DNA from: Bdellovibrionales bacterium
GTDB taxonomy: Bacteria > Bdellovibrionota > Bdellovibrionia > Bdellovibrionales > UBA1609
Assembly (NCBI GenBank): GCA_050246815.1
Contig: JBFWVI010000026.1
Span: forward strand, 1 to 22,718
Reading direction: 5' to 3'
DNA length: 22,718 bases
Shown here: one piece after another, positions 2,657 to 13,013 of the stretch
Numbering within the stretch: position 1 is the stretch's first letter
Layout of the letters: each line of letters starts with the position of its first letter
Notes under the pieces: model-generated
Told to the model about the DNA's origin: nothing
The model's database searches: none
What the model saw: only the letters and a program-made list of their open reading frames with translations
Made by a program: the position numbers and the translations under genes

Positions 2657-3652
2657 TTAAGCAGCCTTGGTCAAAACGTTTTGAGTGTTTTGCAACTTGG
2701 GTAAACACAAGACAAAATGCGTGTGAGCGGACCTATGGTCTAAGATTAATTTCCCCCCATGCCCCTCGGCAATGCGTTTTGAAAGGCTTAGGCCCAAGCC
2801 CGTTCCTTTGTCGACACGTTTTGTAGTGAAAAAGGGCTGCATGATTTTATCGCGAATTTTTTCTGGAATGCCATCGCCACTATCGATCACGCTGATTTCA
2901 ACCGAGCCTTGGTTTTCTTTCACCGAAATGGAAATCCATCTTTCTGATAGATTCTGAACGGCATCGAATGCATTGTTGCACAAATTCAACAAAATCTGCG
3001 AAATCTCGACGAACCGGCATTCAATTTCCACGTCAGGGCCCCATTCCACGGTTAACTCAACACCATTGTCCTTAAAGCGCTCTTGGCACAGACTTAAGGT
3101 GTCCGCGATAATTTTGTTCAACGAGGTCTTTTCCATGGCGTCGGCGGCGCCGTCGCGAGCGAAATTACGCATGCCTTTGATGACCTTTGAAATCCGTTTG
3201 ACCGTATTTAAAATCGTCGCCGCAGTCTGCAGCACGAAATTCTTGTCTAAATCTTTATGTTCGAGCAAAATCTCTTGCAGCTGCTCCGTGCGCATTTGGA
3301 TCACGGCCAGAGGAGTGTTGATCTCATGGGCGATTCCGCCGGCCATCTCGCCCAAAGCCGACATTTTAGTCGTGTTCATCAACCGCGACTGGGCCTCAAT
3401 CAGAGCCTGGTTTGCGACCTCAAGTTCCGATGATTTTGCTTCGGCTCTTCTTTTTGCCTCTATCAATTCTTTGGAGCTTAAGTCCTGTGATCTCTCAGAC
3501 AGTTCGCGGCTGTCATCAAAATCATGGTAAGCTTGGCTGACAGCATCAAAAAACTTTTCAAGCTCCAAACGAACATGAGCAGAATCCTCGTCAAGGATCC
3601 GCTTCAAATGGCGTCGGATCTGTCTTTCTAAAAGCTTATGCCGCGTTTTCAT
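2657..3652 (-). CDS. Cytoplasmic sensor histidine kinase (NtrB-like HisKA + HATPase), FIST-associated
   Basis: H-box GEMAGGIAHEINTPL, N-box NLCNNAFDA, G1 DSGDGI, F-box QPFFTTK, G2 GTGLGLSLS. No TM segment. Overlaps the FIST gene by 17 nt. Confidence 0.93.
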   Translation of the reverse strand: MKTRHKLLERQIRRHLKRILDEDSAHVRLELEKFFDAVSQAYHDFDDSRELSERSQDLSSKELIEAKRRAEAKSSELEVANQALIEAQSRLMNTTKMSALGEMAGGIAHEINTPLAVIQMRTEQLQEILLEHKDLDKNFVLQTAATILNTVKRISKVIKGMRNFARDGAADAMEKTSLNKIIADTLSLCQERFKDNGVELTVEWGPDVEIECRFVEISQILLNLCNNAFDAVQNLSERWISISVKENQGSVEISVIDSGDGIPEKIRDKIMQPFFTTKRVDKGTGLGLSLSKRIAEGHGGKLILDHRSAHTHFVLCLPKLQNTQNVLTKAA

Positions 3653-4784
3653 CAGTTTCGATCAAAGTGGTGATCGTCATAGTTTGATTGTGCAGCTCAC
3701 ATTTGGCGCTCGAGGTGAATGGTGAAATTTCACCATACGAATAAAAGCCCGTCAGCACTGTTTGGCTGCCAAAAATGTCGCGCACACCTTCAACCTCCTC
3801 TTCAATTCTTTGCTTTAAAACAAGCTTTCTGCCCACGCAACTGATCAAAAGCGCCAACTCGGGCGGCTCTGCCTTGAAATTTGCACGGCTCTTTTCGGCC
3901 GCGCCCACGGCACCATCCACCAATCGATCAAAATTGGCTTTCATCAGTTGCACATACGAGCCTTCGGGCACGTCTCCGGCAAAAATAAGGCTCTGATCCT
4001 CTTCATTAATGCCCAACACAGTACGAACTACACCTTGGCTGCCCTCACTCTTGATACAAAGTGGAAACAGCAAGGCGCTGCTCGGCAATTCTTTGGCATG
4101 ATCCCCCAGATAGGACTTATAAAGTTGCAGTACTGAATTGTGATCAAGCTCATATAAAACGTTGGCTTTAGATTTGGTTACCAGCCGCTCGGGCCCGAAA
4201 GAGTCCCACCCCCCTAAGGAAGCAGAACCCGTTTTGATATGACGCCCATAAAGTCCCACCACGGCGATTTGATCGTTCGAAAGACCATCGTTGCCAATCA
4301 CCAGCGTTTCTTGAAAACGTGCTTTGTCGCCAGCAAGACCGCCGGTCATAGTCACGCCCACCGGCAAAGCCGAAGCCAATCCTCGCACCAACTCACTGCC
4401 GTTGACATTCAAACCGACGGAAAGAACAAACACGTGCGATAGGCCCTTTGGATCTAGACGCCTAATCAGCTGTGCCCCGGCATCAAAACTGCTTTTGGTT
4501 TCGAAGAGGCGTAGACTTGCCGATTTGACCGTCGTTCGTTCGAAGTGAATCGCCGTTGTACACACAGAGTCGTCAAAAACTCGATCACCATGGATTTCAC
4601 CAGCTGTTGAGCAACCGAATAGTTGAGCATTGGGATAGGTCCTCTTAATCTCTTGAAGCAAAGATTGGGTTTTTAGTGCATTGGTCTCACCGAAAATAAA
4701 AACCAAATTCGCTTCACCCTGTTGATTGGATTGGCTGAATTGCCAACCACCCGACCGGGTCCATTGACGTTGTTCTAATTTCAT
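3636..4784 (-). CDS. FIST N + FIST C domain protein (NosP-like sensor)
   Basis: FIST motifs GCSTAGEI, GGLAGD, SCVGR, GFYSYGEI, LHNQTMT. GGGGA SD upstream. Confidence 0.92.
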   Translation of the reverse strand: MKLEQRQWTRSGGWQFSQSNQQGEANLVFIFGETNALKTQSLLQEIKRTYPNAQLFGCSTAGEIHGDRVFDDSVCTTAIHFERTTVKSASLRLFETKSSFDAGAQLIRRLDPKGLSHVFVLSVGLNVNGSELVRGLASALPVGVTMTGGLAGDKARFQETLVIGNDGLSNDQIAVVGLYGRHIKTGSASLGGWDSFGPERLVTKSKANVLYELDHNSVLQLYKSYLGDHAKELPSSALLFPLCIKSEGSQGVVRTVLGINEEDQSLIFAGDVPEGSYVQLMKANFDRLVDGAVGAAEKSRANFKAEPPELALLISCVGRKLVLKQRIEEEVEGVRDIFGSQTVLTGFYSYGEISPFTSSAKCELHNQTMTITTLIETDENAA

Positions 4785-6601: not shown

Positions 6602-7222
6602 CTACCGCCGACGGCGACGGCCCCGCCCCCGGCCTGCACCACGGCTTTCACCAACATTGCCGTCAGGGCGGCTGCCGGCCGGTTGATTGTCACCACGCCC
6701 ACCGCCGCTTTGCGAACGTCGGCCGCGGTCCTGTCCGCCGCCACCGACCTGTCGCGCCCCTTGATCCTGGCGCTGTTCGCGGGGCTGGGGGGCGCGTCCC
6801 ACCTCAGCTTCAGCCTGCTTCACAAGAGCGGTGTCTTCCTCTAAAAGAACGCCGCCCACCGAATTGTAATCTTCGGCCCGCTCTTTATTGGCGCGAGCTA
6901 AAAATTTCTTCGGCACTGGACCTTCGTTGGTCTTTTCAAGCTGCTCAGCCAAGTCCACCGTGATGTCGCCAAAACAATATAGTTGGCAAGACAGCCGCCG
7001 CTGGTCGATAAAATAGCCCGTGCCGATCAAATTCAATTCTTTGCGCGAAGGTGGCGGCACATTGTATTCACCGTCCACCAGCTTCACCCTGCATTCCGAA
7101 CAAGAAGGCATGCCATTGCAGACCGAGCGGATCGGCAGATTATTTTCGTGGGCTAAATTCATCACCGATTGGTTCGGTTTGATTTCCAGTTCTATATTTT
7201 GTGGCAGAAATTTGACCTTCAC
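6602..7222 (-). CDS. 2Fe-2S ferredoxin-domain protein with Gly/Arg-rich disordered C-terminal tail
   Basis: [10 protein letters not shown]...RLSCQ cluster ligands (C-x5-C-x2-C...C). Tail ends [15 protein letters not shown] start overlaps the tyrS stop (GTGA). Confidence 0.88.
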
Positions 7223-8445
7223 AACACCACCACCTTAGCAAAACGTTTTTTGCCAGCTTTCACCACCAGCTCGTCGCCCTTTTTCAGATTCAATTTCAGT
7301 TGGGGATCTTTGACTTTTTCGCTGTTGATTTCAACTGCATTGCCTTCCACCAAACGACGCGCTTCGCTGGTGGATTTGGCCAAATCAGCTTTCTGCAGCA
7401 GATGACACACCCATAAGTCTTTGGCCGCCGGCAATTCCACTTTGGGCATGTCATTGGGCAAGCCCTTGTCCACAAAAATGCGTTCGAATTCGGCAAAGGC
7501 CTCGTCGGCGGCGGCTTGACCATGAAATCGTTCGACTAATGTTTTGCCCAACTTCACCTTCACTTCGCGCGGATGAAATTTTTTGTCTTTCAAGCCTTGG
7601 CGCATGGCCGCCACTTCTTCGACGCTCATGTCCGTCAGTAACTCATAATAACGCACCATCAATTCGTCCGACACCCGCATGGTTTTGCCAAACATTTCGC
7701 GCGGCGAATCTTCGACTGCGATGTAATTATCATAGCTTTTCGACATTTTTAGCACGCCGTCCAAACCTTCAAGTAGCGGCACTGTCATGACCGCCTGCTG
7801 CGAAGTTTGGCCATAGGCCTTCTGCAACTCACGTCCGACCAGCAGATTGAACAGTTGGTCGGTTCCACCCAATTCAACATCCGCCTTCAACACCACCGAA
7901 TCGTAGCCTTGTGCCAAGGGGTACAAAAATTCATGAATCGAAATCGGCTGGTGATTTTTGAAACGTTTGCTGAAGTCTTCTCTTTCCAACATTCGAGCGA
8001 CGGTGTATTGCCCCAGCAGCTTTAAAAAATCGGCGGGCGTGAATTTGCCCAGCCATTCGTTGTTGTAGACCACTTCGGTTTTTTGCCTGTCCAATATTTT
8101 ATAGACTTGGCGAGCATAAGTTTCGGCATTGACCTTGATTTCTTCCACGGTCAACGCGGGGCGGGTTTCATTGCGCCCGGTGGGATCCCCAATCAATCCG
8201 GTGAAATCACCAATCAAAAAAATCACATGGTGACCAAATTGTTGAAACTGCCGCATCTTATTGATCAAAACGGTGTGACCCACATGCAGGTCGGGGCGCG
8301 ACGGATCAAAACCGGCTTTTACCTTGAGTGGCTTGTTGTTTTTGACCGCATCTTTAAGCTTTTGCAGCAATTCGGCTTCGCCGACCAAATCGACGATGCC
8401 TTTTTTAAGTTGCTTCAACTGCTCTTCGGCCGGAACCCAAGCCAT
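7219..8445 (-). CDS. tyrS: Tyrosine--tRNA ligase
   Basis: [13 protein letters not shown] (HIGH motif), GGTDQ, KMSKS, C-terminal S4 domain. Confidence 0.98.
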
Positions 8446-8447
8446 GA

Positions 8448-10031
8448 CTACCTCGCGTGCTCAACGATGCGTGTTTCGCGCACCACGTTCACCCGCACCT
8501 GGCCTGGGTAATTCAATTCACGCTCGATTTTGCGTGCGATATCGCGAGAAAGCATTATGGCTTGTTCATCTGTGACTTTGCCGCTGTCGACCAAAACGCG
8601 AATTTCTTTGCCGGCCTGAATCGCATAACTGCGCGCCACACCATCAAAACTATTCGCCACCGATTCTAAATCGGCCAAGCGCTTCACATAACCATCCAAA
8701 TTTTGGCGACGGGCACCGGGTCGTGATTTTGCCAAGTTAAAAGCGGCTTGGACCAAATGAGCCACCACAGACTGGGGTGGTACTTCACCCGTGTGGCTGC
8801 GAATGGCTTGGCAGACATCATCCTTTTCGCCATTCTTTTTGGCATACTCGGCGCCCACCAAAGCATAACTGCCCTCGAAGCTGTGATCCAATCCAAGGCC
8901 GATCCCATGCAACAAACCGGCACGGCGCACAAGCTTCACATCGGCGCCGATTTCACCGGCCATCAGACCAGCGATGTGCGCCACTTCCACGCTGGTGGCT
9001 AGCAGGTTTTGGCCATCGGCTTGGCGGTACTTCAGGCTTCCTAAAACATTCACTAGACTTGGGTGCAATCCATGCACACCCAAATCGAAGGCGGCTTTTT
9101 CTCCGTCTTCTTTCATGGTGCTCAAAAGTTCAGATTTCACTTTGTCGACGACCTCTTCAATGCGCGCCGGGTGCACCCGACCGTCTTCGATCAAGCGCTG
9201 AAGCGCACGACGCGCGATCTCACGGCGAACCGGATCAAAGCTTGAAATGATCACGGTCTCAGGCGTTTCATCGATGATCAAATCCACGCCACAGGCGGCT
9301 TCAAGGGCGCGAATGTTGCGGCCTTCACGGCCGATGATTTTACCCTTCATCTCGTCACCTGAAAGCGGGATGGTCGAAACCGTACGCTCGGTGGTGACTT
9401 CAGAGGCATAGCGCGAAATGGCAATGGACAAAGCACGTTTAGCACGACGATCGGCCTCACTAAGGGCCTCTTCTTCAATTTTTTGTAACTTTGCCGCTGA
9501 ATCGCGACGGACCTCATCGACCATTGAGTTCATCAGCTCGGACTTGGCCTGGTCTGCAGTCATATTCGCCACGGATTGCAGTTTGTTCTCTAAATCGTCG
9601 ATTTGACGTTTGCTCTGCTCTTCCATATCTTTCAAACGGCCTTCGCTGATGTTCAAACGCTGGGTCTGCTCCTCTAGATCACGCATTTTGCTCTGCAGCT
9701 GCTCTTCTTTGCGACGGTAGTCCTTGTCGAGCCGCTGCTCTTTGTCCTTCAACACCATTTCAGTGTTCTGAATTTTTTGTTTCTCTTTACGAATGTCGGC
9801 TTCAAGATTACGGCGCGCGCGCGTCTCAAAATCTTTGGCGCGAGTTTCGGCATCACGTTCAATTTTGCTCACTTGCCCCTTGGCGCGAGACAAGATGCGT
9901 TCGGCCTCTTTTTCGGCGGCGTTACGTACTTTTTCATCCAACATCCGGCGGTACAGCAAAAAGCCCAATGCCCCGATGCCAATCCCAGCCACCACACTCA
10001 AAATCAAATTTAACAGCGCCGCAGCGGTCAT
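8448..10031 (-). CDS. rny: Ribonuclease Y homolog with degenerate HD domain
   Basis: N-terminal TM helix, coiled coil, KH domain ([17 protein letters not shown]), [45 protein letters not shown]. The HD motif reads LLHGIG. Confidence 0.95.
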
Positions 10032-10035
10032 CTGC

Positions 10036-10617
10036 CTATCCTTTCGGCTTCAAAATAAAATTTTCGGTCACAACGTAGTCCATCCGCACGTCGTGCGGCT
10101 CAAAAGGCAAATCTTGGTTTTCAATCTGAACACTGTAAGCCACACCAACTTTGGTGCCACCGTAATGTTGCAAAGCTCGGTCGTAATAGCCCTTACCACG
10201 TCCCAGCCTCGCGCCGCGGCGATCAAAGGCCAGACCCGGCACACAAACCACTGCACAATCCTGCAAAGCCACCTCTTTTGCCATGCGCGCGTCGGGCTCT
10301 TGCAGACCGTAGGGGCCAACCACAAAGTCTGCCGTCTGTTTCGCATTGTAAAAATGCAAATTGTCGCCCACCACTTTGGGCCAACCCCAACTCCAGCTTT
10401 TCATTTTAAGAAGAGGTTCTGCTAAAGCGGGCTCATCGTGCAAACCCACAAAGGCGGCGGCTTGCCCACCTGCTATAGGCAACAGCTGCTCAAGAAACTG
10501 AGCGATCTTTTGATCCCAATTGGTTTTTAGATCTGGCCGCAAAATCCCGTGCAAACGAGCCCGACATTCGCGGCGCAGGCTCAGCTTGCGATCAGCAAGC
10601 GCGGCTGCAGCCGTCAT
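10036..10617 (-). CDS. ygfA: 5-formyltetrahydrofolate cyclo-ligase
   Basis: Signature VPGLAFDRRGARLGRGKGYYDR and EPHDVRMD. ATG 10617 has an AAGGAG SD. Confidence 0.95.
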   Translation of the reverse strand: MTAAAALADRKLSLRRECRARLHGILRPDLKTNWDQKIAQFLEQLLPIAGGQAAAFVGLHDEPALAEPLLKMKSWSWGWPKVVGDNLHFYNAKQTADFVVGPYGLQEPDARMAKEVALQDCAVVCVPGLAFDRRGARLGRGKGYYDRALQHYGGTKVGVAYSVQIENQDLPFEPHDVRMDYVVTENFILKPKG

Positions 10618-10669
10618 CAAAAACTCCTTCAAAGTCGACTGCCAGTCGAACAGCGCTAACGCTTTTGCG

Positions 10670-10981
10670 TTAGTTGTCCGCCCGTAATCGAGCGATCGGA
10701 GATGACTCGAGCTCGGTTAAAATCCGTTTGGCCTTGTTTTCAAGGTTATCCAATTCGGTATGAGTGGTGCGCTTAAGAAAAACCAAGTCTTCGGCGATGT
10801 GAAGTGACGCCAGCAACAGAGCTTTTTGAAACGAGATATTGGGGTTTAAATCCAAAGCTTTTTGCACCCGATCATTTACGAGCTCGATCAATTCATTCAC
10901 AGTTTCCAAATCGTGACTGGAACGCAATTTCAACCCGAGGCCTGCGATTTGGACCTCGTATGTGTTTTTATTTGCGTCCAC
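10670..10981 (-). CDS. zapA: Cell division protein ZapA
   Basis: YEVQIAG..LKLRS, V..RV, KALLLASLHIAEDL, C-terminal coiled coil. GTG start with AGGAG SD. Canonical position upstream of ygfA. Confidence 0.9.
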   Translation of the reverse strand: MDANKNTYEVQIAGLGLKLRSSHDLETVNELIELVNDRVQKALDLNPNISFQKALLLASLHIAEDLVFLKRTTHTELDNLENKAKRILTELESSPIARLRADN

Positions 10982-11273
10982 GGTTGCTCCTGTGATGAGT
11001 CAAATCCTTGCTATATTCTTAATTTATAAGCACTTTTTGGTCAAATTACGGGGTCATTTGGGGCAATGAGTCGTAATCTGGTGCGACACGGCTCTCTAGA
11101 TCGCCATGCTTCATTAAACTTTCTAATCGCATCCCAAAGCTGAAGTCGGTAACACCTGAAAAAAGCTCAACAAATCAGCTTTTTCCCATTTTTTTAGTTC
11201 CAAAAAGAGACCAGTGTTGAACATCTAGACAGTTACATTTAAAGAAGCCTCAACTTTGAGGATAGGACCATGA

Positions 11274-13013
11274 ATGCCACGCATACGACCTTTGCTCTAT
11301 AAACTTCTACTGCTGTTGCTGCTGGCCCTAGCCTCGGCGGCCCAGGCCGATCTGTGTGATTCGGCTTTGATGGCAAAAAAACGTCCCTTGACCCGCTTCC
11401 AACAGCTTAGAGTTGAACAAGAGCAGCAGTGGCGTGGTACAGGCCTCAACTTTGAAGCTCTCTTTGAATGGGGCTTTTATTCTCAAGAGCTTTGCAGCGA
11501 AAGCCCCGAAGCCGCTGTTCAGTGCCTCACCTTTTTGGACGCCTTGGCGCGCACGGGACGCCCCAACTCCTATGCTTTGATTCCCGAGGGGGCCCTGAAG
11601 GCCTATGCGGACGAAATCATAAAAAGCAAAAAAGTCCTCGGCCCGTTTCGCTTGGTGCAAGTGAACCCAGATTGGGTTGCGCCGCCCGAAAAAGGACAGA
11701 CCAAAAACATCCAGCAGCTCAATCGCCAGCGCGCTTCCTTTTTGAATCATGCTAGGCGCATTGCTAAACGTGAAGAAATCGACTTCATGGCTTTACTTGA
11801 AAGAATCGGCCGATTGGTCCTCGAGCCCAAAAGTCAGGCCTCACAAATCGCAGACGCCATAAACACAACTCTACGCCTCGATGACTCCCATGCCCACATC
11901 GTGTCTTCTGACGCCATATTTAGCGATGCAAAACGTGATGGCGAAAGTTCGTGGGGAGGGATCGGTATTTCCCAATCTCCAACAAAAAGCGGCTTTCGAA
12001 TCATGGGAGTGCTGCAAAATACACCTGCAGCGCAAGCCGATCTGCAAATCGGAGACGAGATTATCGAGGTGGATGGGCTGAACAGCCATACCCACGGCCT
12101 TATCGCTATGAATCGCCAGCTCGAGGGACGCGTCGGCGCAACAGTTCATCTGTTAATCCGGCGCCACAGGCAGACATTCGAGCTCACCTTAAAACGCGAA
12201 CTCATTGAGCAACGAAACGTCGAGGCACAACTGGTCTTCAACGCCTATCGAACATCGTCATACGGCCATTTAATACTTCGTAGCTTCGCCAACACTTCAG
12301 GCTGCCGCAATTTAAAACGTAAGATCATTTCGCTCGCTAAAAAGGGGGCCCAGGGCCTGATCCTTGATCTGCGGGGCAATATCGGTGGGCTCCGCTCACA
12401 AGCTCAATGCATTGCCGGACTGTTTTTGGGAAAAAAAATTGTCGCTTACGAAGTTGATCTTGAAACGGGCAAGCGGGTGCCCCTCTATGGTCACGAGAAA
12501 AAAATGACCAATCTACCGCTGGTTGTTCTACTAAATGGTCAATCGGCCAGCGCCTCTGAATTTGTTGGCGGCGCCTTACGTGATCATCATCGCGCCTGGA
12601 TAATGGGCGAACGGAGCTTCGGAAAAGGTAGTGTGCAAACCATCAAAGGCTTTTTTGTGTCGCCCTCAGAAACCTCTTTGATCCATTTATTTACGACTAC
12701 GGCACGCTTTGACCAGCCCGGTGGCACCAGCAATCAAGTTGTGGGCATCGAACCACAGTTTTTCGCCCCCATTATTCCAGGTGGAAACGAAACCGACGTC
12801 GCCCGCGAGGCTTTGTTGTACCAAAATATTCCGGCCCCAGTTAGCAAGAGATGGCGGGAAGACCGTCCTGCTGAAGTTAAGCAACTGAATAAGTGCCTCG
12901 ATGAACGGGGCTACGCCGATGCGATTTTTCTGGAAATGCGCTCAAATGCAGGTCCCTATGCGGACTATCAACTTTTGAAGGCGATCGACCTGCTTGATTG
13001 CATGAACTATTAA
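11274..13013 (+). CDS. Secreted S41-family carboxy-terminal protease (PDZ + peptidase) with N-terminal extension
   Basis: Signal peptide ending AQA, PDZ (GGIGI, TPAAQADLQIGDEIIEVDG), DLRGNIGG, catalytic SASASE and FGKGSVQ. Confidence 0.93.
   Translation: MPRIRPLLYKLLLLLLLALASAAQADLCDSALMAKKRPLTRFQQLRVEQEQQWRGTGLNFEALFEWGFYSQELCSESPEAAVQCLTFLDALARTGRPNSYALIPEGALKAYADEIIKSKKVLGPFRLVQVNPDWVAPPEKGQTKNIQQLNRQRASFLNHARRIAKREEIDFMALLERIGRLVLEPKSQASQIADAINTTLRLDDSHAHIVSSDAIFSDAKRDGESSWGGIGISQSPTKSGFRIMGVLQNTPAAQADLQIGDEIIEVDGLNSHTHGLIAMNRQLEGRVGATVHLLIRRHRQTFELTLKRELIEQRNVEAQLVFNAYRTSSYGHLILRSFANTSGCRNLKRKIISLAKKGAQGLILDLRGNIGGLRSQAQCIAGLFLGKKIVAYEVDLETGKRVPLYGHEKKMTNLPLVVLLNGQSASASEFVGGALRDHHRAWIMGERSFGKGSVQTIKGFFVSPSETSLIHLFTTTARFDQPGGTSNQVVGIEPQFFAPIIPGGNETDVAREALLYQNIPAPVSKRWREDRPAEVKQLNKCLDERGYADAIFLEMRSNAGPYADYQLLKAIDLLDCMNY

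Follow-up and report, generated by a model that had tools for sequence, protein, structure and literature searches.

The rny locus and its metal site

The window, a stretch of 22,718 nucleotides from a Bdellovibrionales bacterium, carries an RNase Y gene (rnyA) in the order zapA, ygfA, rny, tyrS, and the same surroundings are found in many single-copy relatives. The closest named relatives of the window are Bdellovibrionales and Pseudobdellovibrionaceae MAGs at 80-86% identity, with Bdellovibrio bacteriovorus at 52-55%. The features of the locus are as follows.

10670..10981 (-): zapA
10036..10632 (-): ygfA, 5-formyltetrahydrofolate cyclo-ligase, upstream of rnyA; ancestral rny locus
8448..10031 (-): rnyA, encoding a 527-aa RNase Y (paralog A) with an intact KH domain and a lost HD metal site
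9951..10019 (-): N-terminal membrane anchor, about residues 5-27, a hydrophobic helix in the model
9405..9944 (-): coiled-coil region, about residues 30-209 (PF12072; model helices 3-155 and 159-213)
9183..9380 (-): intact KH domain, about residues 218-283 (PF00013 match)
9321..9332 (-): KH GxxG loop G234-R-E-G237; G[RK][ED]GRN in 58/58 clade A proteins
8724..9005 (-): HD-fold domain, about residues 343-436 (PF01966), with a preserved fold and a degenerate metal site
8994..8996 (-): T346 in place of the first ligand His, codon ACC
8904..8909 (-): H375-G376, HD dyad, His kept and Asp lost (codon GGG, 8904-8906)
8865..8867 (-): Y389, His lost, codon TAT; Tyr in 38/58 clade A proteins
8790..8795 (-): H413-T414, HH pair, second His lost (codon ACG, 8790-8792)
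8739..8741 (-): F431, terminal Asp lost, codon TTT; lost in 58/58 clade A proteins
8451..8699 (-): C-terminal domain, about residues 445-527; within-A identity 0.72
7219..8445 (-): tyrS, directly downstream, 2 bases past the rnyA stop

The gap between ygfA and zapA (window 10632-10670) is only 37 bases. In proteobacteria, 6S RNA is often located between these two genes; an Rfam search over window 9000-12000 gave no credible match and no 6S RNA. Elsewhere on the minus strand, a protein at 6602-7222 overlaps the end of tyrS and has a long low-complexity tail, rich in Gly and Arg, after its 2Fe-2S ferredoxin domain, and a NosP-like protein (below the cut-off) adjoins a histidine kinase at 2657-4784.

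The rnyA product scored 606 bits against TIGR03319, above the curated cut-off of 454, and its Pfam matches (RNase_Y_N, KH and HD) all lie in one unbroken open reading frame. It shares with known RNase Y proteins (B. subtilis Rny/YmdA, S. aureus CvfA, TIGR03319) the domain order of anchor, coiled coil, KH, HD and C-terminal domain, including the anchor with its long coiled coil, the KH GxxG loop and the HD fold. In the AlphaFold model every domain was folded (mean pLDDT 83.8; HD region mostly above 90), and a Foldseek search with the HD region returned weak matches to the HD hydrolases 2pq7 (E 9.8e-4) and 3ccg (E 2e-3). A search of the PDB copy by sequence gave 0 matches and thus no RNase Y structure of full length. 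The first-pass annotation had described the KH loop, anchor, coiled coil and C-terminal domain as well conserved, and this held up in the sequence, the Pfam matches and the model; DGRVHP is also intact, as is the GREG loop.

The metal ligands are where rnyA departs from the family. The HD phosphodiesterase motif is H...HD...H...HH...D (PMC8177086), and single-copy relatives, which served as our reference, carry H-HD-H-HH-D in 57/57 cases. Only two of the seven ligands, H375 and H413, are retained in rnyA, while the other five are changed (H346T, D376G, H389Y, H414T and D431F). The replacement of five conserved His/Asp positions in a full-length, frameshift-free gene, as originally noted from this sequence, is thus confirmed. 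Four of the five changed codons are at least two base changes away from any codon for His or Asp. All three further genomes from the window's genus likewise keep only 2/7 ligands, and together these points show that the changes are not sequencing errors, as had also been anticipated. We found no point in favor of either sequencing error or a decaying pseudogene, and the multi-base codon changes, the intact frame, the agreement of 58 genomes and a whole-protein omega of 0.033 refute both; the chance of this explanation is negligible. In B. subtilis, single HD mutations nearly abolish RNase Y activity (PMC10303841), which makes the inactivity of a protein with five lost ligands very likely. On sequence grounds, copy A is very probably catalytically inactive.

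A second RNase Y copy and its reciprocal losses

A second gene, rnyB, lies outside the window on contig C34 of the same assembly (G000:C34:27974-29563, plus strand; L002:1462-3051), and these two are the only rny copies there. The two proteins are 34% identical. All seven ligands are present in rnyB, and its KH module is eroded: it reads TLGPERKLL where rnyA reads IIGREGRNI, has no Pfam KH match, and scored 424 on TIGR03319, under the cut-off of 454.

From whole-genome searches, 178 proteins were typed. The counts for the three classes leave out the two split-gene pieces of G042 and the pair of G100, which were treated apart, and include a B fragment from G025 that lacks the KH domain and was added by hand, so that B has 59 members of which 58 have KH sequence. 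Both paralogs fall into clades with support of 1.0. None of the 58 clade A proteins has 7/7 ligands and all of them have lost D431, yet G[RK][ED]GRN is present in 58/58. In clade B the pattern is reversed, with 7/7 ligands in 59/59, the KH motif in 0/58 and GxxG in 2. The single-copy relatives have both 7/7 ligands and the KH motif in 57/57. Position follows the same division, since 58/58 A loci and 0/59 B loci lie beside tyrS or ygfA. These ligand and KH counts are not independent because the main A/B split is a single evolutionary event.

Further sets gave similar results. Eight additional pairs from family f12 all had HHDHHHN in A and 7/7 ligands in B, and nine additional single copies were all 7/7. 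Among proteins from named loci (80 loci, one dropped for N), 77/79 were A-type without D431 and the remaining two were canonical. The best 120 database relatives of B had 7/7 ligands in all 120, the full KH motif in 0 and DGR[VI]HP in 0; 38 of these 120 retain two glycines at GxxG spacing.

Conservation within each clade was compared by mean identity over 40 matched genomes and 23 single-copy proteins of the order. In the KH domain the values were 0.74 for A, 0.40 for B and 0.76 for single-copy proteins, and in the HD domain they were 0.54, 0.72 and 0.73. When columns conserved in single-copy proteins were followed, 21 KH columns were lost in B only and 0 in A only; for the HD domain, 14 were lost in A only and 6 in B only. 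Clade B also has 13 clade-specific conserved columns. Two of these are Cys residues, at positions equivalent to 213 (90%) and 347 (87%); they occur in rnyB as well, were not seen in single-copy proteins, and one adjoins the first metal His.

Purifying selection acts on both copies. Omega was estimated with IQ-TREE codon models under a fast search, and the values are rough, the domains being short and synonymous sites probably near saturation. Across 16 Bdellovibrio genomes, omega was 0.033 for A and 0.037 for B; within the window's genus, from only three to four sequences, it was 0.033 and 0.045. By domain, the Bdellovibrio set gave 0.004 (the lowest value) for the KH of A and 0.026 for that of B, and 0.031 and 0.015, respectively, for the HD domains. 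B's KH is predicted to be folded and is itself constrained (omega 0.026-0.036). As judged from these estimates, neither rnyA nor rnyB is drifting. The first-pass annotation had considered rnyA catalytically dead but kept under selection, with neutral drift of this copy as one outcome that would speak against it; the 2/7 ligands and the whole-protein omega of 0.033 lend good sequence support to the former and do not bear out the latter. Less well supported is the picture of a stand-alone pseudo-nuclease acting as a lone RNA-binding scaffold, which overlooked a second rny with intact ligands and the opposite defect.

The constraint on A's HD domain (omega 0.013-0.031) raises the possibility that A retains some chemistry or ligand binding in a remodelled pocket. 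H375 is kept in 57/58 and H413 in 52/58 clade A proteins, the Tyr at 389 (38/58) arose in several separate groups, and HD sites can use non-canonical ligands. On the other hand, the replacements vary freely: D376 is replaced by N, A, G, C, S or M, D431 by N, Y, F, H, K, I, C or V, and one A protein has 0/7 ligands. This fits maintenance of the fold, not a new site, and we regard a remodelled pocket as highly improbable. A separate matter is the 9/58 clade A proteins that keep 6/7 ligands, which may retain some activity.

The two copies also travel together. In 198 genomes of the order with at least 95% completeness, where two-match genomes were typed in part, at least two rny matches were found in 96/99 genomes of family f10, 12/13 of f12 and 40/50 of f1, the window's family. 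All other families had one match each, save for the split gene of G042, and the 10 single-copy f1 genomes carry a canonical rny. Neither A nor B was clearly lost alone in about 150 genomes. An apparent B without A in G047 was set aside because tyrS was absent as well, indicating an assembly gap at the locus. A without B was found in three genomes (G272, G249 and G258), and in G272 the contig stops just past pgsA, where relatives have B, so that case was rejected. All three A proteins are of the 6/7 type, and the Asn form may retain some activity. The sole rny of G042 (L239, G042:C42:9277-10819) is in two pieces in different frames, from either a frameshift or an assembly error.

History of the pair and its cellular setting

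Loss of D431 occurred once, at the base of clade A, whose basal members have Asn there and keep the other six ligands. The remaining ligands went later and repeatedly, with a minimum of 6 separate losses for D376, 7 for H346, 8 for H389 and 9 for H414, as counted on a tree of 41 A proteins with low support for many of its inner branches. A mixture model places B within the order, and A+B as a single clade is not rejected (p-AU 0.53), which fits an origin of the pair by duplication but does not prove it. Trees built with LG+G4 and FastTree placed B outside the order; this was taken as long-branch attraction, given the placement under the mixture model. B may also have been acquired by transfer within the order. 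The A/B split is ancient in Bdellovibrionales. A group of genomes from the window's family (G007, G015, G021, G031 and G331-G337) has one canonical rny each, outside clade A and near family f2; an intact gene acquired by transfer may have replaced the pair, or these genomes may have branched off early.

A similar pair was found in family f24, which belongs to another order (genomes G100, G342 and G343; loci L195, L320, L321 and L223, L322, L323). In 3/3 genomes the syntenic copy has D431N and has lost H414, and the second copy has 7/7 ligands, lacks DGRVHP and retains GxxG. The syntenic locus reads zapA-ygfA-rny-probable ymdB-tyrS; ymdB was not found in any of five genomes of the window's order that were searched. 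A clade joining A with the f24 dead copies was rejected (p-AU 0.008), indicating that D431N was the first step on two occasions, each time beside an intact second copy.

A second rny, RNase E and RNase J had been named at the outset as genes to look for. Besides rnyB, a short RNase E/G (frames of 517-552 aa) was present in five genomes searched, and no RNase J over the cut-off was found in 5/5. In RNA-seq data, at least half of the sequence words of one Bdellovibrio A gene were present in 14 runs, and in 4/4 runs examined a contig spans nearly all of the B gene. Since contigs cover most of the genome in these runs, they indicate presence only and not expression level.

Published Tn-seq of B. 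bacteriovorus 109J bears on the importance of each copy. EP01_RS15625 ("ribonuclease Y 1") has 0 insertion sites in 6/6 samples and is listed as putatively essential, one of 201 such genes (PMC6561027). We take it to be copy A because it sits between ygfA and tyrS. EP01_RS07005, which matches copy B by neighbors shared with a B locus, is not among the 201 putative essentials listed there; its SD exceeds its mean in 4/4 conditions, compared to 3/4 for tyrS and 0/4 for each of two neighbors (PMC6561027). We read these noisy values as few insertions. RNase E/G is dispensable in the same study, with well-behaved W values of 0.43-0.97 (PMC6561027). zapA also has 0 insertions and ygfA is ND (PMC6561027), and the apparent essentiality of A may be a polar effect on tyrS. 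The Tn-seq values are compatible with a dead subunit that is needed for the live one, but they are confounded.

Another possible explanation for the lack of insertions in A is that A acts as a brake. It would restrain an otherwise active B in mixed oligomers or by competing for RNA through its KH domain, and cells might not survive the loss of such restraint on a nuclease. A precedent comes from B. subtilis, where overproduced dead RNase Y was dominant negative (PMC10303841). This account leaves B's universal loss of the KH motif and DGRVHP unexplained, and B also looks poorly tolerant of insertions, so we consider a brake improbable.

A probable division of labor between the two copies

Because a second rny with the opposite defect co-occurs with it across three families, rnyA is better read as half of a split enzyme. 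The reciprocal losses, the co-occurrence, the purifying selection and the order of ligand loss are established at the level of sequence, and together they make a division of labor after duplication very probable. In this scheme, the duplication of an ancestral rny would date to the ancestor shared by the three Bdellovibrionales families. Copy A, which stayed in place, would have changed its terminal HD Asp to Asn first and lost further ligands lineage by lineage, while its RNA-binding KH module, its DGRVHP and its two dimer surfaces were retained. Copy B, which moved, would have retained its seven ligands as its KH module eroded, and B alone would presumably bind RNA poorly. In an A:B heteromer, the KH domain of A could capture RNA for the HD site of B to cut, and both copies would then be needed for the cell's main decay-initiating endonuclease.

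The heteromer itself is suggested by the architecture of RNase Y, a membrane-anchored coiled-coil dimer. RNase Y is described as at least a dimer (PMC10303841). In the modelled dimer the chains meet at the coiled coil and at the final beta strand, a channel lies close to the KH domain, and the C-terminal domain is part of the interface in the B. subtilis model (PMC9775385). In our proteins, the N-terminal anchor helix is kept in 56/56 scored A and 54/55 B sequences, and the C-terminal strand consensus is kept in both clades. The anchor-to-KH span (G20-R207) is 188 residues in 55/55 A and 53/55 B proteins; it lends the heteromer weak support, being also the ancestral length (found in 18 single-copy proteins, with four of the same order 4 residues shorter). 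The coiled coil of B is 17-24% identical to that of A, and in a coiled-coil charge test cognate A/B pairs did no better than non-cognate ones.

Those last two results also favor a different account, in which A and B each form homodimers with separate jobs. B would then be a self-sufficient nuclease or phosphodiesterase that works without a canonical KH loop, and A a membrane-bound RNA-binding protein or degradosome scaffold beside this independent active paralog. The 13 clade-specific columns of B and the lack of linkage between the genes, with 0/59 B loci near tyrS or ygfA, would also be expected. Separate jobs do not readily explain why the two copies show complementary losses in the two functional modules, why neither copy was clearly lost alone in about 150 genomes, or why the split recurs in f24. 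We consider this account unlikely.

Two complementary half-enzymes that are kept together are most simply explained by a heteromer, and we put the probability of a physical, productive A:B complex at roughly 60%. Against it stand the blank charge test, the ancestral span, and the fact that B's KH is still folded and constrained. In addition, the dominant-negative effect in B. subtilis indicates that a dead subunit need not help. It is an even bet that in Bdellovibrio and its relatives the main, probably essential mRNA-decay endonuclease is an obligate RNase Y heteromer that arose at least twice in the phylum, each time beginning with a change of the terminal Asp to Asn. If such an obligate heteromer exists, it would imply that in RNase Y dimers in general, RNA bound by one chain's KH domain can be passed to the HD site of its partner. 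A 2024 review notes a lack of structural studies on RNA binding by the KH domain of RNase Y (PMC11261784). A natural pair that may separate binding from cutting, in a cultured and tractable species, would make the cis-or-trans question testable and would provide an asymmetric sample for structural work.

Canonical RNase Y combines RNA binding and catalysis in one self-associating chain, whereas here the two appear divided between paralogs. Prozyme-type pairs, such as the trypanosomatid AdoMetDC (PMC5201418) and deoxyhypusine synthase (PMC3663545), resemble the present case in that a dead member is retained alongside its partner; here too, dead and ligand-intact paralogs persist together and a single duplication is not rejected (p-AU 0.53). 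As those sources describe them, prozyme-type enzymes are heteromers in which the dead paralog activates its partner allosterically. The losses in the RNase Y pair are reciprocal, as the substrate-binding signature is missing even from its putative live copy.

RNase J1 and J2 of Firmicutes are likewise paralogous decay nucleases of unequal activity that form a complex. They differ in having a metallo-beta-lactamase fold, and they are not known to have divided binding and catalysis by reciprocal losses.

The terminal Asp to Asn change of clade A and f24 has a parallel in Bd1817, a B. bacteriovorus HD-GYP protein that has Asn at this position and is reported to be inactive while still binding iron (PMC8177086). 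Bd1817 belongs to another family with another substrate, its GYP motif is degraded too, and it is not known to have a compensating paralog of this sort. In our literature searches, which left most subscription journals outside, a dead or split RNase Y pair was not found in print.

Databases name both copies ribonuclease Y. The annotation can be corrected, since rnyA exceeds the curated RNase Y cut-off despite its lost active site and rnyB, with all ligands intact, falls below it; from its sequence, rnyA is best filed as the putative pseudo-nuclease half of a divided RNase Y. Clade A, with its series from 6 to 0 ligands, provides a clear record of pseudoenzyme formation after duplication. Another variant of the family was seen in f22, where the single RNase Y matches of 3/12 genomes (G153, G129 and G101; loci L224, L225 and L226) start at model position 180; the anchor and most of the coiled coil are seemingly absent, and the KH and HD domains are intact.
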